A DNA stretch of 10,847 bases, from NCBI GenBank assembly GCA_016926065.1, contig JAFGPI010000117.1, positions 1 through 10,847 of the forward strand. The letters are read 5' to 3'. The position numbers were made by a program, and so were the translations under genes. How positions within the stretch are numbered: the first letter of the stretch is position 1; every line of letters begins with the position of its first letter. Of the stretch, positions 416 to 10,847 are shown piece by piece. Origin of the DNA: Candidatus Krumholzibacteriota bacterium. Lineage in GTDB: Bacteria; Krumholzibacteriota; Krumholzibacteriia; Krumholzibacteriales; Krumholzibacteriaceae. The notes below the pieces were generated by a model that did no database searches, was not told the origin of the DNA, and worked only from the letters and a program-made list of their open reading frames with translations.

Positions 416-2386
416 ATGGTACAGGGTATAGTCTTGGGTGTTCTTTTCGTCGCCACTTTAATAGCGTTCGGTTTCATAGTACGAACGCTGATCCGGATCT
501 TGCTGCTGGGAAAACCTCAAGGCGGATTCCAGGATCACGGACGCAGGCTCTGGTCGGTTATCGTCTATGTCGCCGGACAGGCGAAAGTGCTCTCCCAGCT
601 GGCCGGCCTGGGACATTTCCTGATATTCTGGGGTTTCATCTTCATTACCCTGGGCACCCTCGAGCATATGCTCGGCATGATCATCCCCGGATTCAGCTAT
701 GCCGTCATATTCGGAGCGACGGTGGCCGGGGTGATCTCGCTGGTGCAGGATATTCTAGCCCTGCTGGTCCTCTTCGCCATCCTGGTCTCTTTCCACCGGC
801 GATTCATCCTCAAGCCGCTAAGGTTGAGGATAGATGATCCGGGGGCCAGGAACGAGGCGGTATTCATCCTGTCCCTGATCTTTATCCTTATCCTGCTCAT
901 GTTCTGCATAAAAGGGATCGGGATCATCAATGGAGAGATCGAGGGAGGGTACGCCCCGGTATCCAGGCTGGTGTCCGGACTGTTCGAGGAAAAGAATATC
1001 GATCTGCACCTGCTGGAATCCGTTCTCGCGTGGATTCATCATCTCATTATCTTCTTCTTTCTGCTGTACGTGCCCTTCTCCAAGCATATCCATATCCTGG
1101 GGGCCATACCGAACATCTACCTGCGCAACCTGGGCCCCGCCGGAACACTTTCGCGCATGGATTTCGAGGACGAATCGGCGGAGAAATTCGGGAACTCGGA
1201 GCTGCGCGATTTCACCTGGAAGCAGCTTCTGGACCTGTACGCCTGCACCGAATGCGGAAGGTGCCAGGCGGCCTGCCCGGCCTTTCTCACCGATAAGCCG
1301 CTCAGTCCCTTCCGGATGATTCACCGGATGAGAGGGCACCTGATGAGCGAGGGACGGGAATTGTTAAAGGCAAAAGAGGCCGAGGGAACCGCGATCATCC
1401 CCGGCACCATGACGGAGGATGAGATCTGGGCCTGCACCACCTGCGGCGCGTGTATGCAGGAATGCCCTCCCTTTATCGAGCACGTGCAGAAGATCGTCGA
1501 TCTGAGGCGGTACCTGGTGATGACGGAGAGCCGTTTCCCCTCGGAGATGCAGCCGGTTTTCAAAAATATGGAAGTCAATTACAATCCCTGGTCCCTGGGA
1601 TTTTCGGCCCGGGCCGACTGGGCCGAGGGTCTCGATATCCCCCTGGCGGCGGAAAAGAAGGAGTTCGATATCCTTTTCTGGGTAGGCTGCGCCGGTTCCT
1701 TCGATTCCCGGGGGCAGAACGTGAGCCGGGCGCTGGCCGGGCTGTTGAAAAAGGCGGGAGTCGATTTCGCCATCCTGGGAACGGAGGAAATGTGCTGCGG
1801 TGAAACCGCCCGCAGGATGGGGAACGAATATCTGGCCCAGACATTGATCGAGGCGAATATAGAGACGCTCAAGAAATATTCTTTCAACCGGATCCTCACT
1901 GCCTGCCCGCACGGATTGAACACCTTCCGGGTGGAGTATCCTCAATTCGGTTACCGGAAGCAGGTGGTGCATCATTCCGAGTTCCTCCTGGAACTGGTCG
2001 AGGCGGGGAGGCTGGAATTGGGATCGCGGGATAGTAAAAAGGTCGCCTATCACGATTCCTGCTACCTCGGCCGCTATAACGATATCCTGGCGCAACCCCG
2101 CGAACTGATCAGAAGGGTCGGGGGCATGAAGCTGAAGGAATTCGGGAGGAACCAGAAACGGTCCTTCTGCTGCGGTGCCGGGGGGGGACGGATGTGGATG
2201 GAGGAGGATATCGGAAAGCGAATCAACGAAGAGAGGGTGGATGAATCGCTCGGGCTCGGGGTCGAGGAAATATTCACCGCCTGTCCGTTCTGCCTGACGA
2301 TGTTCGAGGACGGATTCAAGGCGCGCGACGTGGACAAGATAAAGGTCCTGGATATCGCCGAGCTTATGGCCGAAGCCATTCGATAG
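416..2386 (+). CDS. Fused membrane cytochrome-b-like (NarI/DsrM/HdrE-type, 5-6 TM helices) plus HdrD/DsrK/GlpC-like iron-sulfur oxidoreductase with two CCG domains
   Basis: GGAGG at 407-411, 4 nt before ATG 416. The N-terminal ~230 aa are hydrophobic with several conserved His (HFLIFWGF, AWIHHLIIFFF, SKHIHILG). There are two 4Fe-4S ferredoxin motifs, CTECGRCQAACP and CTTCGACMQECP. Two CCG cysteine-rich domains follow: C-x-CCGETARRMG...ACPHG and SCYLG...FCCGAGGGRMW...ACPFC. Confidence 0.85.
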   Translation: MVQGIVLGVLFVATLIAFGFIVRTLIRILLLGKPQGGFQDHGRRLWSVIVYVAGQAKVLSQLAGLGHFLIFWGFIFITLGTLEHMLGMIIPGFSYAVIFGATVAGVISLVQDILALLVLFAILVSFHRRFILKPLRLRIDDPGARNEAVFILSLIFILILLMFCIKGIGIINGEIEGGYAPVSRLVSGLFEEKNIDLHLLESVLAWIHHLIIFFFLLYVPFSKHIHILGAIPNIYLRNLGPAGTLSRMDFEDESAEKFGNSELRDFTWKQLLDLYACTECGRCQAACPAFLTDKPLSPFRMIHRMRGHLMSEGRELLKAKEAEGTAIIPGTMTEDEIWACTTCGACMQECPPFIEHVQKIVDLRRYLVMTESRFPSEMQPVFKNMEVNYNPWSLGFSARADWAEGLDIPLAAEKKEFDILFWVGCAGSFDSRGQNVSRALAGLLKKAGVDFAILGTEEMCCGETARRMGNEYLAQTLIEANIETLKKYSFNRILTACPHGLNTFRVEYPQFGYRKQVVHHSEFLLELVEAGRLELGSRDSKKVAYHDSCYLGRYNDILAQPRELIRRVGGMKLKEFGRNQKRSFCCGAGGGRMWMEEDIGKRINEERVDESLGLGVEEIFTACPFCLTMFEDGFKARDVDKIKVLDIAELMAEAIR

Positions 2387-2514: not shown

Positions 2515-3357
2515 TTACACTCCCTTATCAACGGAGGAGGGCTCCGTCATGGTCTCGATGAGGCGGCTGGAGATATGAAAATCGCCCAGCAGGCTGGCCA
2601 GGGAGACCCCTTTGCGCAAGAAGGGAAATTCGATAAGCCGGGGAGGGGCGGCCGGCTCCAGCACCACGTTCTGTATTAAATCCCCGCACTGTTGAATGGC
2701 GTCGGGCAGGGTGGAGATGAATATGTAATCGATCAGGGAAACCGCGTCGGCGGCGTGCAGCACGCACCTCACCTGGTGACCGGGCTGGTTCAAGCGCGCT
2801 ATCCGGTAGGGAGGCTGCCTGCGGGTGAGCAGGTGGCCTACCTTGAGATTGGCCAGGGCGTTCCGGGAGTGGAAGGCCGGAACATAGATACGGAAGGCCC
2901 CGTAACTTTCTATCCTTTCCATCAGATGGTCGATCTCGCCACCGGAAGGGAGCAGCTTGGATTCTATCGTCTCATCGATGAGCCTGGTCCGTTTAACCTG
3001 GAAATCTATCCCCACCGTTTCCACGAAGGGTAATTCCGGTTCCGGCTTTTCCTTCTCCAGCCCGGTGGAGGCGATGATGCGGGTGGCGTCGGTCAGCCGG
3101 GTCAGGGAGCCGCGCATCAGGCTCCGGAGCTTGGCTCTATCTATTTCCACCACCCAGAAGGGAAGCCAGATCGTCTCTTCCGCCTCGCAGTCCGCTGCCT
3201 GGGCGCGGAAAACGGATACCGGGGCGAGTCCTTCCTCGGTTATGATCTGGTAGGAAAAACAGGTTCCGCATTGAAAGGTGACGAACTGTCCCCTAACCGG
3301 GAGTTCCGCTCCGCAGTTGATGCATTTCAGGGGACGCACCGTGATATCTCCGCTCAT
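2515..3357 (-). CDS. Soluble N-terminal zinc-ribbon protein (paralog D of the operon triplet), function unknown
   Basis: ATG directly abuts the stop of the upstream gene (TAG then ATG). SD GGAGGTGA sits 7 nt upstream inside the preceding gene. The N-terminus KCINCGAEL-x11-FQCGTCFS is a CxxC...CxxC zinc ribbon, then the WLPFWVVEIDRAKLRS motif shared with the two upstream genes. No TM segment. Confidence 0.7.
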   Translation of the reverse strand: MSGDITVRPLKCINCGAELPVRGQFVTFQCGTCFSYQIITEEGLAPVSVFRAQAADCEAEETIWLPFWVVEIDRAKLRSLMRGSLTRLTDATRIIASTGLEKEKPEPELPFVETVGIDFQVKRTRLIDETIESKLLPSGGEIDHLMERIESYGAFRIYVPAFHSRNALANLKVGHLLTRRQPPYRIARLNQPGHQVRCVLHAADAVSLIDYIFISTLPDAIQQCGDLIQNVVLEPAAPPRLIEFPFLRKGVSLASLLGDFHISSRLIETMTEPSSVDKGV

Positions 3358-4407
3358 CTACCATTCACCTCCGAACCAGTTCTCCAACCGGCAGGCCATC
3401 CACCGCAGGGGGGGGATGATCTCGCCGTTCTGAACCATGTCGAAAATATAAAGAGCCACCGCCGCTATCGGAACCAGGGGAAACCACGTCCCCGCCAGTA
3501 TCGCCCCCAGGGCCGGAACGAAAAAGAGAGAGCGGACGTTGATCTTTTTACGCAGCGGAAAGTCTCCCCGAATGACGTGGGCGTTGTTGCCGTCTATGGT
3601 GATGGAGTAGATTCTGCCTCCATGCCGGTAACGCAGTATGTACACCGGATAGTAATAGAGGGAGAGATCGTTGCCGAACAGCTTGAAGCGCTGACCGCGA
3701 ACCTTGGAGCCGGGGGGAAAGGTCAACCGGGAAAGATAATTGAATCCATCTTTTTCGGCGTTCTGCATCGGCTTCATGGCCAGGGCTATGGGGAGCTTCT
3801 TTTTCAGGTCGTGATTAAAGATATCCCAGTTGAGAAACTGGGTCTTCAGGGATATTCCCTGCAGGCCCAGATGGCGCAGCGCGCAGGCGGGGGTGCTCCA
3901 ATCGATCTCCTTGAAGATCAGCTTGGAGAAGGGATGATATTCCACCCGGTATGATTTCCGCACCTGGGGTCCGTCCGGTCCGGGAGCGACCACCTCGATC
4001 TCCCTTTTAAAGGCCTTTTCCCCGGCGGCCCATCCCACCAGCCGGCCGTGCATCCTCCAGAAGGGGACATGTATCAGCCGCAGGTCGAGAATGGAGGCGT
4101 GACGCGCCCTGATCCTCCCCTCGGTTTCGCGGGAGAGATAGTGCAGTGCCGCCAAACGGGCCTTTCCGGCGGTGATGGAGGGCTGTAGGATAAATGACCG
4201 GGCGCCCCGGGGCCGGTGGACGTAAAGGGCCGAATGGCAGTATTCGCAGCGCAGGCTCCGCTCTCCCTCGTGCAGGCGGAGGGAACCTCCACAGGTGGGG
4301 CAGCTGATACCGATCGTTTCGGATGATCCGCCGTTAAGGGTAGAGGCGGTGTCGTCCGCTTCCGGACCGATGGCTTCGGAAAGGGTGGTGGTCTCATTTC
4401 CGGCCAT
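3358..4407 (-). CDS. Zinc-ribbon protein with a C-terminal transmembrane anchor (paralog C), function unknown
   Basis: SD AAAGGA is 6 nt before ATG (complement of 4405-4407), which overlaps the upstream gene stop by 14 nt. The zinc ribbon is CPTCGGSL-x11-LRCEYCHS, followed by the IHVPFWRMHGRLVGW motif. The C-terminus is hydrophobic: LFFVPALGAILAGTWFPLVPIAAVALYIF. Confidence 0.7.
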   Translation of the reverse strand: MAGNETTTLSEAIGPEADDTASTLNGGSSETIGISCPTCGGSLRLHEGERSLRCEYCHSALYVHRPRGARSFILQPSITAGKARLAALHYLSRETEGRIRARHASILDLRLIHVPFWRMHGRLVGWAAGEKAFKREIEVVAPGPDGPQVRKSYRVEYHPFSKLIFKEIDWSTPACALRHLGLQGISLKTQFLNWDIFNHDLKKKLPIALAMKPMQNAEKDGFNYLSRLTFPPGSKVRGQRFKLFGNDLSLYYYPVYILRYRHGGRIYSITIDGNNAHVIRGDFPLRKKINVRSLFFVPALGAILAGTWFPLVPIAAVALYIFDMVQNGEIIPPLRWMACRLENWFGGEW

Positions 4408-5098
4408 GAGCTATCCTTTCGCGAACACTGTAGGCGGCAAAACCCAGGGAAGCGGCCGCCCCGATCACCAGGCAGCGTCCCACCCAGCCGTGATCCAATT
4501 TCCCCGCCAGCAGGTAAATGAGCAAAAGGGATAAAGCGGCCAGGATATTGGGGACGCTGAGGGGCGAGGGCCGGGGGGGAGGCAGCTCTTCCGCCTGGAT
4601 GTACAGGCTTTCTCCCAGCACCAATGCTTGCCAGTCCCTTCCGGCCGCCGTGTAGTTCAATCTATAAACCGGCAGGTGGAGCACCTTTTCGGTTTCCGCG
4701 GTAATATTATCGAAAGAAATTATCTTTTCCTCGCCAGCCAGGCTCTCGTCGAAGAAGCAATAATTTCCGGCGGGAGGAAAGGGAAGAGGCCCGGTGCGGT
4801 AAGTGATTCCCGGCGCCGGATAGGCCCTTACCCGTCCCTGCTCGTCCGGGCAGAGCAGATAGGGGAGATAAACAAATTCCACCTTTATGTCCCGGGGCCG
4901 GGCCAGCTTCTTGCCGGTCAGGAAAGATTGCAGGGCATACCGGGCGACCTTATCGTTTCGCTTATGCGGCAGGATCAGGTGCTCGGGTCCGCCTCCCTTT
5001 TCGATGGCCAGGGATGATCCGCAAAAGGAGCAGAAGAGCATCTTCTGCCCCGGGTATATCTCGTTGTCGCCGCCGCAGAGGCTGCATTTAACCTGCAT
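4394..5098 (-). CDS. Zinc-ribbon protein with two C-terminal TM helices (paralog B), function unknown
   Basis: SD AAGGAAG is 3-4 nt before ATG (complement of 5096-5098), which overlaps the SPFH gene stop by 11 nt. The N-terminus is [25 protein letters not shown], a CxxCGG...FCxxCGS zinc ribbon. The VYLPYLL motif follows. The C-terminal hydrophobic helices are [15 protein letters not shown] and [14 protein letters not shown]. Confidence 0.7.
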
Positions 5099-6245
5099 TG
5101 TCTTCCTTTTCCACCTTTTCGCCGCAGCCGGTGCAATATTTGGTTCCCGGGGGCAAAGTAGTCTGGCAATGCGGGCAGGTAAGCCCCGCCCCGAGTTTCT
5201 TGCCGCAGGCCGAGCAGAACTTCGCTTCCGGGGGCAACTCGGCCGCGCAGGACGGACAGCGGTTCATGGTGATCAGCTGGGTTCCGCAATTCTGGCAGAA
5301 ACGTGAATCGGCGATTACCTCGTTGTGGCACCGGGGACACCGGAGCATCTGCACGGTGGCGGTGGTCACGCCCGCTTGCCCCGTATCCACGCTGCGGGCC
5401 AGCATTCCCGGTATCATCATGCCCAGTCCGGCTCCCACTCCCACTCCCATTCCGCCGGCCGCGGCCGCGCCGGCCCCGCCTCCTCCGCCGGAAGAGGCGG
5501 CATCCCCCATGGCCTTGGCGGCCTTGAACTTGAAAAAATCGTCCAGGTTGCCGACCGCCTCCAGGCCGCTCCTTTCGTCGATCATCTTCTGGACCTCGGG
5601 AGGAGGAGTGATCGAGTTGATGAAGAAATCGCTCAACTCCATTCCGTACTTGGAAAAATCGCTTTTCAGGCGGTCCTTGATCTCGACGGCCAGTTCATCG
5701 TAGTACTGCGGCAGATCGAATATGGTATCCAGTTTCTCGCCGAACATATCGTTGATTCTGGCCACCACCACGTCCCGCAGGTATTCACCGATCATTTCGC
5801 TGGAATAAACGCCCTGGGTTCCCACCACCGTGTTGATGAAGAGCACCGGCTCGGTGATCTTGAAGGTGTAAATCCCGAAAGCCCGCAGCCTTACCAGGCC
5901 CAGCTTGCTGTCCTTGAAGGCCACCGGATCCTTGGTGCCCCACTTCTGGTTGAGGAACATCTTCATGTTGATGAAATAGACCTCCGCCCGGAAGGGGCTT
6001 TTAAATCCCCAGGGGAGGGCGAGGATTTTGGTCAGGATCGGCAGGTTCTTGGTGGTCAGGGTGTGCCTTCCGGCGCCGAAGATATCGAGCCCCTTGCCGT
6101 CCTTGAAAAACACGCTACATTGGTTATCGCGGACGATCAACTGGGCGCCCATTTTTATTTCCGCCGAACCCTCCTGGGGAATGCGGTGCGTGATCTCTTC
6201 TCCGCTTTCATCGAACCATTCCAGTACTTCCATGAATTGTGACAT
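5088..6245 (-). CDS. SPFH/Band-7 family protein (COG4260, 'virion core protein'-type SPFH, B. subtilis YdjI-like) with a Gly/Ala-rich linker and a C-terminal triple zinc ribbon
   Basis: SD AGGAGG (complement of 6250-6255) is 4 nt before the ATG. The N-terminus [45 protein letters not shown] and the [16 protein letters not shown] segment are characteristic of this SPFH subfamily. The linker is [27 protein letters not shown]. Three CPxC-x9-10-(F/Y)CxxCG repeats follow. Confidence 0.85.
5091..5339 (-). other. Triple tandem zinc-ribbon tail of the SPFH protein
   Basis: [44 protein letters not shown] and [22 protein letters not shown] are three ~22-aa repeats, each with four Cys. Confidence 0.75.
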
Positions 6246-6511
6246 GCCGCCTCCTGTCGTTATAATTCCCGGCCGGGTATTATTACCAAATTAAGCAAAA
6301 TCTTGTGGTTGCGTGGAACCATAGGTAAACGTGCAAAGTGAATGCCAATCGATGCCGTTTGGGGGAGATGGCGGACCGGTCGGGCTTTCTCCCCGCCGCC
6401 GAACGGAACGGTTGCTATAAGATGTTTATATTCAACTACTTCCACCGGGAGGGCCAGCTGAGGACCGGGGGCGGCCCGGATCGGTCGTAGAGAGAAGATG
6501 TCGGTCCACCG

Positions 6512-6527
6512 GGGGACTTTTGTCCCC
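6512..6527. promoter_or_regulatory. Perfect inverted repeat GGGGAC-TTTT-GTCCCC in the divergent intergenic region, a candidate transcription-factor operator
   Basis: 16-bp palindrome seen directly, centred about 50 bp upstream of the predicted -35 of the plus-strand operon. It is not followed by a U-tract on either strand, so it is unlikely to be a terminator. Confidence 0.35.
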
Positions 6528-6577
6528 TCTCCCGCCGGCGCTGGTAAGTAATTATGCAATTCCCCCCTGCCGCGAAC

Positions 6578-6606
6578 TTGCAGGATACTGAAATTTCCTG
6601 TATAAG
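6578..6606 (+). promoter_or_regulatory. Sigma70-like promoter for the deacetylase-ligase-panD operon: TTGCAG, 17-nt spacer, TATAAG
   Basis: -35 TTGCAG at 6578-6583, exact 17-nt spacer, -10 TATAAG at 6601-6606. The TSS is predicted near 6613, giving a ~55-nt leader. Confidence 0.45.
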
Positions 6607-6668
6607 TATCATTTGCAGTGTTGCCGGATAGAAATTGGGGAGGAAAGGAAATGGCGGAGTAAAGACCG

Positions 6669-7892
6669 ATGGGAAACAAGGGCGTGCCGGTTATCATGTA
6701 TCACGGGGTAAGTCCCGGTCATCCCGGTTGGCTGTGGAACCATCTGCTCACCCCGGTGGAGGTGTTCGAGGCCCAGATGTCCCGGTTGCGGGAGGGGGAG
6801 TGGACCGCCATATCCCTGGCCCAACTGTATTCCCATATGTCCCGGAACGCTCCCCTGCCCGAAAAACCGATCGTGCTGACCTTCGACGACGGGTATCTGG
6901 ACAATTGGGTTTACGCCTACCCGATTCTGAAAAAGTACGGTCTCCAGGGAGTAATCTGGATGACCACCGACTTCATCGATCCGCGGCCCGATGCCCGTCC
7001 CAACCTGGATGACTACTGGAACGGCCGGGTGGCCCGGGGGGAGCTCCGGGGAGAGGGATTCCTGTCCCTGGCGGAAATGCGGAAGATGGTCTCCTCCGGA
7101 CATATCGAGATTCAGAGCCATGCCCGGACCCACACCTGGTATTTCCGCGGTCCCCGGATCGTGGATTTTCACCGGCCGAAAGGAGTGGATGGATACATAC
7201 CGCAGCCCTGGTTGGCCTGGAATGCCGCCCCCCAGAGAAAATTCGCCTATCTAGCCGAAGAGTACGAAACCCTGGTGCCCTATGGATCGCCCATCTACGA
7301 GAACGGAAAATCCCTCCAGGTGAAGAGGTATTTTGAGGATGAGGAGCTCACTCGGCTGCTGGTGGATCATGTGCGCCGGGAGGGAGGAGAGCGTTTTTTT
7401 CTCCGCCCGGGATGGCGTAAGGAACTGGAGAGGCTGGTGGCGGAAAATCCTCCCCGGGGCGGACGCCTGGAAAGCGAGGAGGAATACCGGCGGCGGGTCG
7501 AGGATGAATTGCAGGAATCCCGCCGGATCCTCTCCTCCTCCCTCGGCACCGAGGTGAATTTTCTGTGCTGGCCGGGAGCCGGGATCAATGACACCGCCCT
7601 GCGGCTGGCGTCCGAGGCGGGATATCTGGCCACCACCACCCATTATCTGGACCGGAAAAAGCGCAATTGTTTCGGCGAGAATCCCCGCGAGATCAACCGT
7701 ATCTACTGCGGCAGTCCCTGGTTCTGGAGGGGAAAAAGGATTACCGATCACACCGACCCCGGGTTTTTCCTAAGTACCGTGGAGGCCTTCCGGGGAAACC
7801 GGCTCGCCGCCTGGAAAACGCGTTTATTTAAATTTAAATATCTGGTACACTATTATCTCCTTGGGAGTAAAAATGAGATAGGAGTCCGTTGA
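6669..7892 (+). CDS. Polysaccharide deacetylase (NodB homology domain / CE4 family). It has no N-terminal signal peptide and is probably cytoplasmic
   Basis: The N-terminus VPVIMYHGV is the typical start of a NodB domain. The TFDDGY Asp-Asp motif and the H-A-R-T-H (HxxxH) metal-binding motif are present, and NFLCWPGAG is the C-terminal motif region. The gene ends in an ATGA overlap with the next gene. GGAG lies 9 nt upstream of ATG 6669. Confidence 0.8.
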   Translation: MGNKGVPVIMYHGVSPGHPGWLWNHLLTPVEVFEAQMSRLREGEWTAISLAQLYSHMSRNAPLPEKPIVLTFDDGYLDNWVYAYPILKKYGLQGVIWMTTDFIDPRPDARPNLDDYWNGRVARGELRGEGFLSLAEMRKMVSSGHIEIQSHARTHTWYFRGPRIVDFHRPKGVDGYIPQPWLAWNAAPQRKFAYLAEEYETLVPYGSPIYENGKSLQVKRYFEDEELTRLLVDHVRREGGERFFLRPGWRKELERLVAENPPRGGRLESEEEYRRRVEDELQESRRILSSSLGTEVNFLCWPGAGINDTALRLASEAGYLATTTHYLDRKKRNCFGENPREINRIYCGSPWFWRGKRITDHTDPGFFLSTVEAFRGNRLAAWKTRLFKFKYLVHYYLLGSKNEIGVR

Positions 7893-9616
7893 AAATGTTG
7901 CTGCCCCTTGCCCCGTCCCTGGTCAGAAATGTCATTTATCCGGTTTATAGAGGTTTGAGGGGGGACAAGCTGCTGCAGATCCTGCAGGAACTGGAGGAGA
8001 ACCAGTACCTTTCCCCGGAGGAACTGGAGGATATACAGTGGCGGAGGATGTCCGCCTTCCTTGAATATATCGCCAACCACGTTCCCTATTACAGGGAGCT
8101 TTTTGAGCAATCCGGCTGGAAGGCGGAAGATTTTCAGAATCCGACCGATCTGCTGCGGGTCCCTCTTCTGACCAAGGAGATTATCCGCCGGGAGGGAAAG
8201 AGCCTGGTCACCACCGATCCTCTCATCAAGGGGTACGACTCCAACACCGGAGGTTCAACCGGAGAGCCTCTCTATTTCAAGATAGCCAATTCCACCAGCC
8301 CCTACCGCCGGGCCAACACCCAGAGATGCTACCGCATGTGCGGGATAGAGATCGGGGAGAAGCAGGCCTATGTCTGGGGTTTTCCCTTCAATATTCCCCG
8401 GAAGGAGAAGATCAAGTCTTCCTTCCGGAATTATTTCAACAATATCACCTACCTCTCCTCTTTCAATATGTCGGAGCAGGCGATGCGCGACTACGCGCTC
8501 AAGTTAAAGAAATTCAAACCGGCGGTGGTTATCGGATATCCTTCCGCGGTGACCCTTTTCGCCGAATTCTGCCGGGATAATCAAATATCGGGGATCGAAC
8601 CCCGGGCGGTGATTTCCAGCGGGGAGAAAATGTATCCGCCCCAAAGGGAGGTGCTGGAGGAATTCTTCGGCTGCCCGGTCTTCGACCGCTACGGCAGCAA
8701 CGAATTCGCCAATGTGGCGCATGAATGCGACCGGCACAAGGGACTGCACGTTTTCAACGACCTGCTCTACGTGGAGGTGCTGCACGAGAACGGTAGGCCG
8801 GCCGGCCCCGGGGAAGTGGGGGAAATAGTAATAACCGATTTTCTTAACCGTTTCATGCCTTTCGTCAGGTACCGCACCGGGGACATGGCGGTTCAAACCG
8901 ACAGAACCTGTGAGTGCGGCCGGGGCCTGCCCCTGCTGGAACGGATCGAGGGTAGGACCTTCGATACGGTGATGACCAACGACGGAAGATTCATCGGCGG
9001 GTACTTCTGGACCTATCTTTCCCGGGTGGTCCCGGGAGTGAAGCAGTTCCAGGTCGAGCAGAAGCAGAGGAACACGGTGACCTTCCGGATCGTGCCGGGC
9101 CCGCAGTGGGAAGACCAATACCAGGAAAGGATAATAAAGGAAATAGTGGAGAACATGGGCCCGGGAACCAAGGTGAATTTCGAAAAGGTCGCCGAGATTC
9201 CCCTCTCCCCGGCCGGTAAATTCAGATTCATCCTTTCCAAGGTGGAAGAAAGGATGGTGGTGAAGTCGAAGATCCATAAGGCCAGCGTGACCGGCGAGGA
9301 CCGCGAGCGGATAGACTGCATTGTAGTGGATGAGGAAATTCTGGAATTGAGTAATATCGCTCCCTGCGAAAGAGTGCTGATAGTGGACAACGATAACGGC
9401 GCCCGGGTGGAAGCTTTCGTGGTGAAAGGAGAAAGGGGCAGCCAGGAGATAGTAACCTGCGGGGGGGTGGCCCAGCACATTCACGCCGGAGACGAGGTTA
9501 TCATCATGGCCTTTACCTGGTCGGAGGAAACCCACGGACACTTTACCAATATCCTGGTGGACGAATCGAACAAGTTCGTTCGCTACCTTACCGAAAAGGC
9601 GGGGGATAAAATATAG
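7889..9616 (+). CDS. PaaK/CapK/coenzyme-F390-synthetase-family adenylate-forming ligase (aa 1-455) fused to a C-terminal PanD-like double-psi beta-barrel domain (aa 456-575) that lacks the catalytic residues
   Basis: The N-terminus SPEELEDIQWRRMSAFLEYIANHVPYYRELFEQSGWKAEDFQNPTDLLRVPLLTKEII is typical of PaaK-like enzymes. GGSTGEPL is the phosphate-binding motif. The C-terminal 120 aa align gaplessly with the downstream PanD. The start overlaps the deacetylase stop (ATGA). Confidence 0.85.
   Translation: MKMLLPLAPSLVRNVIYPVYRGLRGDKLLQILQELEENQYLSPEELEDIQWRRMSAFLEYIANHVPYYRELFEQSGWKAEDFQNPTDLLRVPLLTKEIIRREGKSLVTTDPLIKGYDSNTGGSTGEPLYFKIANSTSPYRRANTQRCYRMCGIEIGEKQAYVWGFPFNIPRKEKIKSSFRNYFNNITYLSSFNMSEQAMRDYALKLKKFKPAVVIGYPSAVTLFAEFCRDNQISGIEPRAVISSGEKMYPPQREVLEEFFGCPVFDRYGSNEFANVAHECDRHKGLHVFNDLLYVEVLHENGRPAGPGEVGEIVITDFLNRFMPFVRYRTGDMAVQTDRTCECGRGLPLLERIEGRTFDTVMTNDGRFIGGYFWTYLSRVVPGVKQFQVEQKQRNTVTFRIVPGPQWEDQYQERIIKEIVENMGPGTKVNFEKVAEIPLSPAGKFRFILSKVEERMVVKSKIHKASVTGEDRERIDCIVVDEEILELSNIAPCERVLIVDNDNGARVEAFVVKGERGSQEIVTCGGVAQHIHAGDEVIIMAFTWSEETHGHFTNILVDESNKFVRYLTEKAGDKI
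9254..9613 (+). other. Degenerate aspartate 1-decarboxylase (PanD)-like domain inside the ligase ORF
   Basis: KSKIHKASVTGEDRERIDCIVVDEE...NGARVEAFVVKGERGS...GDEVIIMAF aligns without gaps over 84 positions to PanD at 9712-10071. The Gly-Ser pyruvoyl precursor pair is replaced by Asp-Cys, and the Tyr of TY(V/A)I is replaced by Phe (EAFVV). Confidence 0.75.
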
Positions 9617-9645
9617 ATGAAAAATGAGATTCCATGTGATATAAT
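9617..9645 (+). promoter_or_regulatory. Candidate internal promoter for panD with an extended -10 (TGaTATAAT) and a weak -35 (ATGAAA)
   Basis: TG at 9637-9638, one spacer base, then the perfect TATAAT at 9640-9645. ATGAAA at 9617-9622 gives a 17-nt spacer. It lies in the 95-bp gap between the ligase and panD. Confidence 0.35.
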
Positions 9646-9711
9646 AATCGCGCGTGGTGTCTTCTCCCGGCCGAAGGCGCTGGCAGGATAAGATCATCAG
9701 GAGGCCATCCC

Positions 9712-10071
9712 ATGAAACGCCTATTATTGAAATCGATGATTCTCAGGGCTACCGTCACGCAGGCTGATATCCAGTATGTGGGAAGCATAACCATTGACGA
9801 GGATCTTATCGATCAAGCTAATCTCAGTGAGCATGAAAATGTGCATGTGGTCGACCGTACCAACGGCAAGAGGTTGGAAACCTACGTGATCAGGGGGGAA
9901 CGCGGTACCGGGGTTATCTGCATGAACGGCGCTGCCGCCCACCTGATCAACCAGGGTGACCAGGTCGATATCATGGCATTTTCCTGGTCCACCGGTAAGG
10001 CCAATCCCATATTCATTCAGGTCGATGAGAATAACCGGTTTCTTAGATGTCTGGATGAAAAGAGTCTTTAA
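9712..10071 (+). CDS. panD: Aspartate 1-decarboxylase (pyruvoyl-dependent), making beta-alanine from L-aspartate
   Basis: AGGAGG at 9699-9704, 7 nt before ATG. The sequence LKSMILRATVTQADIQYVGSITIDEDLID...NGKRLETYVIRGERGTGVICMNGAAAHLINQGDQVDIMAF keeps Lys9, the Gly24-Ser25 cleavage/pyruvoyl site, Arg54, Thr57 and Tyr58 equivalents of E. coli PanD. Length is 119 aa. Confidence 0.85.
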   Translation: MKRLLLKSMILRATVTQADIQYVGSITIDEDLIDQANLSEHENVHVVDRTNGKRLETYVIRGERGTGVICMNGAAAHLINQGDQVDIMAFSWSTGKANPIFIQVDENNRFLRCLDEKSL

Positions 10072-10109
10072 CAGTCCACCGTTCCGAAACATTCCTCAGG
10101 TGATCGATT

Positions 10110-10847
10110 ATGTTTAACAGGAGTATTCGTCTGTTCCGCTTATGGGGAATTCCGGTGGAACTGAATATCAGCTGGGTATTGATCCTGATACTGGTCACCT
10201 GGACCTTCGCCACCAATTATTTTCCTCAGTACTACCCCGGCGTCTTTTCCCCTTCCCGGGCGTGGATTCTCTCTTTTTTCACGGCCCTGCTTTTATTTGT
10301 TTCGATACTGCTGCACGAGTTCAGCCATTCCCTGGTGGCGGTGCGCAGCGGCCTGCCGATCAATAAGATTACCCTGTTCATGTTCGGGGGGGTGGCGCAG
10401 ATGAGCCGGGAGGTGGATAATCCCTCGCTGGAGTTCCGCATGGCGGCCGCCGGTCCGTTGATGACGTTGCTGTTGATAATCGTCATGTATGCCCTGGGGA
10501 TCTTGCTGGGAAGGGTGATTTTTATGGCGGCGTTGTTGAAAACGGTAGCCAGCATCAACGCGGGTATCTTCCTGTTCAATATGTTTCCCGGATTTCCCCT
10601 GGACGGGGGAAGGATTCTCCGGGCCGTGCTATGGCGACGCCAAGGGAGCATTCTCCGCGCCACCAGGACCGCCAGCCGGATCGGGATCGTCTTCGCCTAC
10701 GGCCTGATTATTTTTGGCGCCCTGAATTTAATAATCACTCAAGAGGGGGTGGGGAACCTGTGGATGGTGCTGATCGGTTTTTTCCTGCGGCAGGCGGCCC
10801 GTACCAGCTACGATAGCGTTTTGTACCGATCCCTGCTGAAGAATCTC
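10110..10847 (+). CDS. Site-2 protease family zinc metalloprotease (peptidase M50), 3'-truncated by the window end
   Basis: AGGTGA is 6 nt before ATG 10110. Manual translation is open to the last base. RLFRLWGIPVELNISW is the typical M50 N-terminus, HEFSH is the HExxH zinc site, FNMFPGFPLDGGRIL is the LDG motif, and there are several TM helices. It is not in the ORF track because it is incomplete at the edge. Confidence 0.8.
   Translation, partial: MFNRSIRLFRLWGIPVELNISWVLILILVTWTFATNYFPQYYPGVFSPSRAWILSFFTALLLFVSILLHEFSHSLVAVRSGLPINKITLFMFGGVAQMSREVDNPSLEFRMAAAGPLMTLLLIIVMYALGILLGRVIFMAALLKTVASINAGIFLFNMFPGFPLDGGRILRAVLWRRQGSILRATRTASRIGIVFAYGLIIFGALNLIITQEGVGNLWMVLIGFFLRQAARTSYDSVLYRSLLKNL

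Follow-up and report, generated by a model that had tools for sequence, protein, structure and literature searches.

The locus analyzed here lies on contig JAFGPI010000117.1 of a Candidatus Krumholzibacteriota bacterium (GenBank assembly GCA_016926065.1), the whole of which (10,847 nucleotides [nt]), read on the forward strand, is referred to as the window. In the list of open reading frames (ORFs) of the window, positions 6669 to 10847 are occupied by four co-directional plus-strand genes that encode a NodB-family deacetylase, a PaaK/CapK-type ligase with a C-terminal PanD-like domain (ligase::PanD'), a stand-alone aspartate 1-decarboxylase (PanD), and an M50 protease (Table 1). The two PanD-related sequences display complementary losses of active-site residues, a pattern that stands out as the most interesting result of this work and the one most open to testing. 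We tentatively propose, as a possibility rather than a probability, that the locus encodes an obligately split aspartate decarboxylase assembled on a CapK-type ligase, where beta-alanine would be made and from which it would be grafted onto a cell-surface glycan. The parts all come from known superfamilies, and PanD is the only one that reaches the threshold of an equivalog model, yet it lacks a residue held to be strictly conserved. As judged from the sequences, the finding appears to be a combination of two themes, amino acid decoration of glycans by CapK-type ligases and the pairing of an enzyme with a pseudo-enzyme.

In canonical PanD, a pyruvoyl-dependent homotetramer that is not fused to a ligase, a single chain holds all active-site residues. 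Lys9 and Arg54 enter each active site from the neighboring subunit, and the pyruvoyl group, Thr57, and Tyr58 are provided by the other subunit (PMC3314653). Tyr58 serves as the proton donor in decarboxylation, and Lys9 and His11 were reported to be "strictly conserved among ADCs" (aspartate decarboxylases) (PMC3314653); Lys9 and Arg54 bind dicarboxylates, and activation requires Thr57 but not Tyr58 (PMC3975893). The stand-alone PanD of the window scores 124.8 bits against the equivalog model TIGR00223 (cut-off, 106) and keeps Gly24-Ser25, Arg54, Thr57, Tyr58, and Asn72, whereas Lys9 is changed to Met and His11 to Leu. The preliminary description of this DNA, in which this protein figured as the maker of beta-alanine, is therefore supported as far as the family is concerned, but the enzyme is an atypical one. 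The fused domain, which belongs to the same fold family (Asp_decarbox, PF02261; E = 1.2e-24), falls below the TIGR00223 cut-off with 73 bits and, in an alignment with PanD that is gapless over residues 1 to 95, keeps Lys7, Lys9, His11, and Arg54 but has Gly24 changed to Asp, Ser25 to Cys (nt 9314-9319), Thr57 to Ala, and Tyr58 to Phe. Relative to canonical PanD, the stand-alone protein thus lacks Lys9 and His11, and both the pyruvoyl site and Tyr58 are missing from the fused domain. The fusion is labeled "phenylacetate-CoA ligase" by JGI and "aspartate 1-decarboxylase" by NCBI; the latter label is wrong for a domain without a pyruvoyl site.

The fusion is a large family, in which nearly all of the best 120 hits combine CapK_C with Asp_decarbox. 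Among the 119 of these proteins that are at least 480 amino acids (aa) long, the fused domain carries Lys7, Lys9, and His11 without exception (119/119) and Arg54 in 118/118; position 24 is Asp in 116 and Glu in 3 but never Gly, position 25 is Cys in 86, Gly in 20, and Ser in 13, and position 58 is Phe in 107 and Tyr in 1. That Asp24-Cys25 of PanD' might form a pyruvoyl group or serve as a covalent acyl acceptor was considered and rejected as a general feature, given the sequences with Gly at position 25. Conversely, the PanDs that adjoin a fusion (22 loci) invariably lack Lys9 (22/22), which is replaced by Met or, in two cases, by Ala; with one exception, they have Leu, Met, Phe, Ile, or Val in place of His11, and all retain Tyr22, Gly24-Ser25, Arg54, Thr57, Tyr58, and Asn72-Ala75. 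When the window PanD was searched against 1.84 billion cluster representatives and the best 150 (representatives at the 50%-identity level) were taken, a motif script read both Lys9 and His11 in 122 of the 150, and the N-terminally short entries that were inspected carry both residues, too. The sequences without Lys9 among these 150 were P0121, from the same clade, P0122, which sits in a locus with the order GT4 (a glycosyltransferase)-deacetylase-ligase::PanD'-PanD-M50, and one protein with an aberrant N terminus. The searchable literature yielded no description of a ligase-fused PanD-like domain or of Lys9-less PanDs, and nothing relevant on a K9A mutant of PanD or on Krumholzibacteriota in connection with PanD.

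Because the losses complement each other and both Lys9 and Arg54 serve the active site of a neighboring subunit, PanD and PanD' likely form mixed rings, that is, a heteromer seated on the ligase. Complete active sites would then, we infer, arise only at the interfaces, where PanD would contribute the pyruvoyl side and the fused domain Lys9 and Arg54, and such mixed rings would physically tie beta-alanine synthesis to the ligase. Enzymes paired with dead paralogs exist elsewhere; one of them, AdoMetDC, is itself a pyruvoyl enzyme. In trypanosomatids, AdoMetDC is activated by its prozyme, and deoxyhypusine synthase is likewise activated by a dead paralog (PMC5201418, PMC3663545). The likeness extends to the architecture of the sites, in that those of deoxyhypusine synthase lie at interfaces between impaired and dead subunits. 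However, these pairs are eukaryotic, unfused, and experimentally proven, whereas the PanD/PanD' heteromer is a proposal drawn from the complementary residue losses.

The module to which the pseudo-PanD domain is fused was classified using profiles, structures, and motifs. CapK_C (PF27533) is precomputed for P0001, the protein on record that is 100% identical to the fusion, and for 116 of the 120 listed homologs, and the PaaK structure 4r1l matches the ligase with E = 5.5e-27. In an AlphaFold2 (AF2) model of the fusion (pLDDT, 86.6; pTM, 0.72), the two-domain PaaK fold is present, followed by a linker of lower confidence and by the PanD-like domain with a mean pLDDT of ~90; when this model was used as the Foldseek query, the top 37 PDB matches were all PaaK-family proteins (E down to 4e-28). 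The adenylation motifs TGGSTGEP (the P-loop), YGSxEF, YRTGD, and SGK, along with the C-terminal catalytic Lys, are invariant or nearly so in alignments of 25 and 80 sequences. The score against PF00501 is below the cut-off (23.7 versus 29.9), as are, by far larger differences, those against the PaaK equivalog models TIGR02155 (77.9 versus 646.3) and NF041878 (106 versus 700). By fold and motifs, then, the second gene is classified as encoding a PaaK/CapK-type adenylate-forming enzyme of the ANL superfamily. It shares the fold and the adenylation motifs with PaaK (PDB 4r1l, 2y27, and 2y4o) at 21 to 23% identity and a Foldseek E value of ~1e-27 but differs in context, which is glycan synthesis rather than aromatic catabolism, and in the addition of the C-terminal PanD-like domain.

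The ligase family has a length of 573 aa, and the alignment of its members begins at the ATG at 7895 (575 aa would result from the TTG at 7889), so that the most likely start is ATG 7895, located 2 nt past the deacetylase stop codon with AGGAG in front. An exact-protein look-up with the TTG-start version of the fusion found no match; the identical protein on record is P0001. An ATGA overlap at 7889-7892, from which translational coupling of deacetylase and ligase had been proposed, was not confirmed: direct reading of the sequence gives TTGA, and the two genes are tightly packed without overlap.

The product of the first gene matches Polysacc_deac_1 (PF01522) with 68.3 bits (cut-off, 23.1) and contains YH at residues 11-12, TFDDG at 71, HARTH at 151, and WPGAG at 301; the TFDD, HxxxH, and YH motifs presumably have the metal-binding or catalytic roles of their counterparts in PgaB. 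Its nearest relatives are the N-terminal domains of PgaB/BpsB (best match, PDB 5bu6; E = 5e-16), although the PgaB equivalog cut-off is not reached (TIGR03938, 102.7 versus 321.9). The YH, TFDD, HxxxH, and WP(Y)G motifs are common to this protein and the PgaB/BpsB/IcaB poly-beta-1,6-GlcNAc de-N-acetylases. However, PgaB-type enzymes are exported and act on the finished polymer, whereas the window deacetylase contains an insertion of ~100 aa and has no signal peptide. Neither a signal peptide nor a transmembrane segment nor a hydrophobic N terminus was detected in it (maximum KD19, 0.71). An in-frame stop codon at 6660-6662, immediately 5' of the start, precludes an upstream N-terminal extension, and more than 20 orthologs from many phyla start no more than ~10 residues from the "PV(I/V)MYH" strand, none of them with a hydrophobic stretch. 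For these three reasons, the deacetylase is, as far as sequence can show, cytoplasmic, and the earlier observation that it begins directly with its catalytic domain and lacks a signal holds. A pairing of the same two families is found in E. coli K-12 (L088, 145081-146694), where panD adjoins yadE, which is annotated as a putative polysaccharide deacetylase lipoprotein; this is probably a coincidence.

Gene neighborhoods were compared across ~25 fusion loci. PanD follows ligase::PanD' in 18 of the 21 informative loci, and a deacetylase is encoded directly upstream of the fusion in 13/19, mostly preceded by a GT4 gene; unlike most of its relatives, the window lacks the GT4 gene just upstream of the deacetylase. 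Two loci, both within Wzx/Wzy polysaccharide operons, represent a divergent cassette type in which the genes are ordered differently. In one of these (L019, from a metagenome-assembled genome [MAG] labeled Nitrospira), the order is ligase::PanD', GNAT (Acetyltransf_6), GT4, deacetylase, PanD, Wzy_C, deacetylase, and GT4; in the other (L092), Wzx is followed, after intervening genes, by GT4, deacetylase, ligase::PanD', PanD, GT4, radical SAM, and a further glycosyltransferase, with PanD overlapping the ligase stop codon. Because they are co-conserved, including in these divergent polysaccharide operons, we conclude that ligase::PanD', PanD, the deacetylase, and GT4 are functionally linked and act on glycans. 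The preliminary description had derived an operon logic from the four genes of the window and made their co-conservation a test; this logic stands for ligase::PanD', PanD, and the deacetylase, to which the GT4 missing from the window has to be added, but it is not supported for M50. Neither the GT4 partner nor the complementary PanD/PanD' losses had been mentioned there.

Unfused CapK-like ligases, with 32 to 44% identity, occur in many phyla, and a GT4-deacetylase-ligase trio was found in 8 to 10 of 62 sampled loci, in varied orders and within Wzx/Wzy loci rich in GT4 genes. This trio thus appears to be a widespread module, of which the PanD-related parts would be a specialization. For the cassette GT4, the best model is the PEP-CTERM stp2 exopolysaccharide glycosyltransferase, followed by the GlcNAc transferases BshA and MshA, all below their cut-offs. 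The set of an stp2-like GT4, a deacetylase, an AMP-ligase, a decarboxylase, and a FemAB-like protein recalls, in what we take to be a resemblance, PEP-CTERM/XrtA exopolysaccharide loci; PEP-CTERM-specific models in an NCBIfam-type scan gave no matches for the deacetylase or the ligase. The FemAB-like GNAT (PF13480, Acetyltransf_6) is encoded at 11900-13003 of L019, between the fusion and GT4, and could cap or extend an amine on the product. One MAG (JAGLYV01, GCA_023131975.1) harbors two ligase::PanD' paralogs, one in a cassette with PanD and M50 (L008) and the other in an exopolysaccharide locus beside GT4, pyruvyl-transferase, and FrhB-like genes but without PanD (L003). An apparent GT4::deacetylase fusion ORF in L008 was not used as Rosetta-stone evidence, as the GT4 C terminus is scrambled on translation, probably by a frameshift.

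The M50 gene has a different distribution. Its ORF matches PF02163 (77.8 bits; cut-off, 27.2) and contains the motifs HEFSH and NMFPGFPLDGG, and its orthologs are proteins of 374 to 378 aa with CBS domains; with this match, all four product identities in the preliminary description agree with profile searches (PF01522, CapK_C/PF02261, TIGR00223, and PF02163, in gene order). An M50/CBS gene lies 3' of PanD in ~12 of 16 loci, all of one synteny type that also keeps an SPFH operon, and is absent beside the cassette in L019, L092, and L002. Membership of M50 in the pathway, which had been suggested from its position at the end of the operon, was rejected on this distribution. Because the gene is missing where the cassette sits in polysaccharide loci and is bound to the Krumholzibacteriota-type synteny, it is probably a co-transcribed but functionally separate neighbor inherited within the lineage. 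In L012 (10549-11157), a different, short (202 aa) M50-like gene replaces the M50/CBS gene after PanD. In L023, M50 comes immediately after a truncated ligase, and both the PanD domain and PanD are missing, an arrangement that may reflect deletion or misassembly. A conserved ORF of 54 to 55 aa is located on the opposite strand directly after M50/CBS in L001 (13350-13517), L004 (12804-12971), and L089 (9547-9711); the window ends before the corresponding position.

This conserved synteny, in which the order of the SPFH operon, PanD, and M50 is maintained throughout the Krumholzibacteriota-type loci, is strong and, together with the fact that PanD reaches the equivalog cut-off, lends itself to an explanation without any dedicated pathway. 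PanD would be a housekeeping enzyme for pantothenate and CoA, the fusion would have arisen from a tandem duplication of panD, and the gene order would be inherited; the PanD-like domain would bind aspartate or another dicarboxylate, or only oligomerize, in the service of a ligase with a different substrate. The retained Lys9 and Arg54 would indeed suit aspartate as well as beta-alanine, and ligase and panD are separated by a 95-nt gap with a promoter-like site. However, Lys9-less PanDs were found only beside the fusion, PanD is inserted between the deacetylase and the Wzy gene in L019 and overlaps the ligase in the L092 polysaccharide operon, and complementary residue loss is hard to account for without physical interaction between the proteins. 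We consider this explanation very improbable.

We regard it as plausible, although short of probable, that the deacetylase, ligase::pseudo-PanD, and PanD, joined in the relatives by GT4, constitute a cytoplasmic cassette that attaches beta-alanine to a sugar, with M50 separate from it. In such a cassette, GT4 would transfer an N-acetyl-hexosamine, with a lipid-linked glycan as the likelier acceptor and a small molecule as the less likely one, and the signal-less NodB enzyme, to judge from its family and location, would strip the N-acetyl group at the cytoplasmic face. For PanD to convert aspartate to beta-alanine, it would have to be docked to the pseudo-PanD domain that the ligase carries, a step for which the residue pattern is observed and the heteromer is presumed. 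Finally, the ligase would adenylate a carboxylate and form an amide joining beta-alanine to the sugar. In the favored form of this last step, which the preliminary description had proposed, the freed sugar amine would attack beta-alanyl-AMP to yield an N-beta-alanyl-hexosamine. N-beta-alanylation is favored because GT4, deacetylase, and ligase travel as a trio, and the recurrence of this trio across phyla with unfused ligases fits a scheme of adding GlcNAc, unmasking its amine, and re-acylating it. The direction of the amide is nonetheless the weakest step of the mechanism; N-beta-alanylation ranks somewhat above the opposite direction, with a small-molecule product and a housekeeping PanD as minor alternatives.

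Several observations weigh against this proposal. PanD retains Lys7, which might substitute for the lost Lys9, and a hydrophobic pocket could still support decarboxylation, so the enzyme may be active on its own. A deacetylase is absent within 10 kb of five or six fusions that do have PanD (L004, L015-L018, L093, and L094), so the deacetylase is not needed in cis. In the window and in most Krumholzibacteriota loci, the cassette lies outside polysaccharide loci, and the searchable literature yielded nothing relevant on beta-alanine in bacterial polysaccharides or on PanD in exopolysaccharide clusters. Moreover, experimental data on a CapK-like enzyme exist only for VpsH, and they tie it to the opposite polarity, in which a uronate carboxyl is joined to a glycine amine (PMC13463779).

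The case of VpsH underlies the principal rival, in which a uronic acid residue in a lipid-linked glycan would be adenylated by the ligase at its C6 carboxylate, the amine of beta-alanine would attack to give a uronyl-beta-alanine amide, and the deacetylase would perform an independent tailoring step. According to a paper of July 2026, VpsH of Vibrio cholerae, a tailoring enzyme for the VPS exopolysaccharide described as related to phenylacetate-CoA ligase and CapK-like proteins, is required to put glycine on the carboxyl of GulNAcA in a lipid-linked disaccharide, and deletion of vpsH in a vpsI background traps the glycine-free lipid-linked disaccharide (PMC13463779). Like VpsH, the window fusion is a putative adenylate-forming enzyme of the CapK/PaaK type, with a CapK_C domain and, in its relatives, polysaccharide assembly genes nearby; for both, the proposed site of action is the cytoplasm, the substrate a lipid-linked intermediate, and the outcome an amide-bound small amino acid. 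The carboxylate-holding Lys9 and Arg54 of the fused domain would leave the amine of beta-alanine free, as this direction requires. In the A-T modules of nonribosomal peptide synthetases, carrier domains that deliver the nucleophile sit after the A domain, and by analogy the position of the PanD-like domain might suit such a role. Several fusion loci lack a deacetylase, and of 7 cassette loci with an unfused ligase, 3 contain a UDP-sugar 6-dehydrogenase gene.

On the other side, no UDP-sugar 6-dehydrogenase gene (Ugd/WecC homolog) lies within 10 kb of any fused ligase, and the opposite direction leaves the recurrent, tight GT4-deacetylase-ligase trio unexplained. The PaaK-family enzymes of known substrate among the Foldseek matches adenylate small acids, which counts in favor of beta-alanyl-AMP. 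VpsH itself has no PanD-like domain and neither a decarboxylase nor a deacetylase encoded next to it, and it handles glycine and the carboxyl of a uronic acid; its catalytic role is putative, and its likeness to the window ligase is taken from the description of it as CapK-like in that paper. Taken together, we hold the uronyl-beta-alanine amide to be unlikely, if a genuine contender.

The proposed N-beta-alanylation resembles known chemistry. In mycothiol (MshA/B/C) and bacillithiol (BshA/B/C) synthesis, a GT4 GlcNAc transferase, a de-N-acetylase, and an ATP-dependent ligase act in succession, and the ligase places an amino acid on the freed amine. The order of the chemistry would be alike, and the cassette GT4 resembles BshA and MshA, albeit below cut-offs; however, the cassette deacetylase is of the NodB/CE4 type (PF01522) instead of LmbE, a PaaK/CapK-type ligase stands in place of a CysRS-like enzyme or BshC, beta-alanine would be the amino acid attached, and several cassette loci are polysaccharide operons. 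The parallel raises the alternative that the product is a low-molecular-weight glycoside, for which GT4 would transfer GlcNAc to a small acceptor, deacetylation would give GlcN-X, and beta-alanine would be placed on the amine. This would be consistent with the shared three-step logic, with BshA and MshA being next-best for GT4 among both models and structures, and with the finding that the window cassette and most Krumholzibacteriota-type cassettes are isolated, with housekeeping genes around them and no Wzx, Wzy, or additional glycosyltransferase genes. Nevertheless, the fusion family or cassette is located inside long Wzx/Wzy operons in L002/L003, L013, L019, and L092, the best GT4 model is that of an exopolysaccharide glycosyltransferase of PEP-CTERM systems, and the deacetylase and ligase families are unlike those of the thiol pathways. 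We view a small glycoside as improbable.

The proposed beta-alanine cassette bears on a family of enzymes that is present in the polysaccharide loci of many phyla and is routinely misnamed, the CapK-like ligases, of which the first member was tied to amino acid decoration of a glycan in 2026. Here, the fused and the adjacent PanD name the small-molecule substrate of the ligase, so that the chemistry of the family becomes directly testable. The cassette predicts a new glycan modification, by beta-alanine, in phyla of which little is known (Krumholzibacteriota, Latescibacterota, and that of the Nitrospira-labeled MAG); if the proposal is true, it would be the first case in bacteria of a PanD paired with a pseudo-enzyme, as well as the first pathway for a beta-alanine-decorated polysaccharide. 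An active site split at the interface of an enzyme and a fused dead paralog would bear on pseudo-enzyme evolution and substrate channeling and would also be relevant to PanD as a mycobacterial drug target.

Table 1. Features of the cassette and its surroundings, in window coordinates
Feature	Position	Strand	Remarks
Sigma-70-like promoter candidate, GTGACA-16-TATAAT	6239-6266	+	11/12 matches; ~400 nt 5' of deacetylase start
NodB/CE4 de-N-acetylase gene	6669-7892	+	407 aa; PgaB/BpsB N-domain-like; ~100 aa insertion; predicted cytoplasmic
AGGAG ribosome-binding site for ligase	7880-7884	+	within 3' end of deacetylase gene; read from sequence
PaaK/CapK-type adenylate-forming ligase module (N-domain and CapK_C)	7895-9250	+	alternative TTG start at 7889
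Pseudo-PanD (Asp_decarbox) domain fused to ligase	9251-9616	+	PF02261, residues 455-562
Second promoter-like site, ATGAAA-17-TATAAT with TG (extended -10)	9617-9645	+	in 95-nt gap 5' of panD
Stand-alone PanD	9712-10071	+	119 aa; Gly24-Ser25 at nt 9781-9786; Lys9 to Met at nt 9736-9738
M50 (site-2 protease family) membrane metalloprotease, N-terminal 246 aa	10110-10847	+	cut by window end

The intergenic regions carry few recognizable signals. A single promoter shared by all genes, as previously predicted, is not established: there is a second site at 9617-9645, and the total of five promoter-like sites in the region is within the range of shuffled sequences (3.2 +/- 2.0), without excess. The panD-M50 gap measures 38 nt, and no terminator-like sites were predicted in it or in the longer ligase-panD gap; blastn against all related loci detected no conservation of the three intergenic regions. 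The noncoding gap of 424 nt 5' of the deacetylase (6246-6668) is located where the relatives encode GT4, and no decayed GT4 gene or remnant was found in it. If the site at 6239-6266 is the promoter, the leader is unusually long; it contains no riboswitch, as the Rfam scan of the whole window gave no matches at E <= 1. A 397-aa ORF on the minus strand (8504-9697) that is antisense to, and wholly within, the ligase gene most likely arose from sequence composition, given the strong homology of the plus-strand frame.

Upstream of the cassette, positions 416-2386 (plus strand) encode a 656-aa protein with several membrane spans at its N terminus, fused to a 4Fe-4S dicluster and a pair of CCG domains (HdrD/DsrK/TfrB-like), which reaches no NCBIfam cut-off. 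A divergent four-gene operon with overlapping start and stop codons between genes occupies 2515-6245 on the minus strand. The product of one of its genes (5088-6245) is an SPFH/Band_7_1 protein with double zinc ribbons at its C terminus, and the other three products (234, 349, and 280 aa) are zinc-ribbon proteins for which membrane segments are predicted at the C terminus. At least 12 related loci keep this SPFH operon in the same position, upstream of the cassette and divergent from it.

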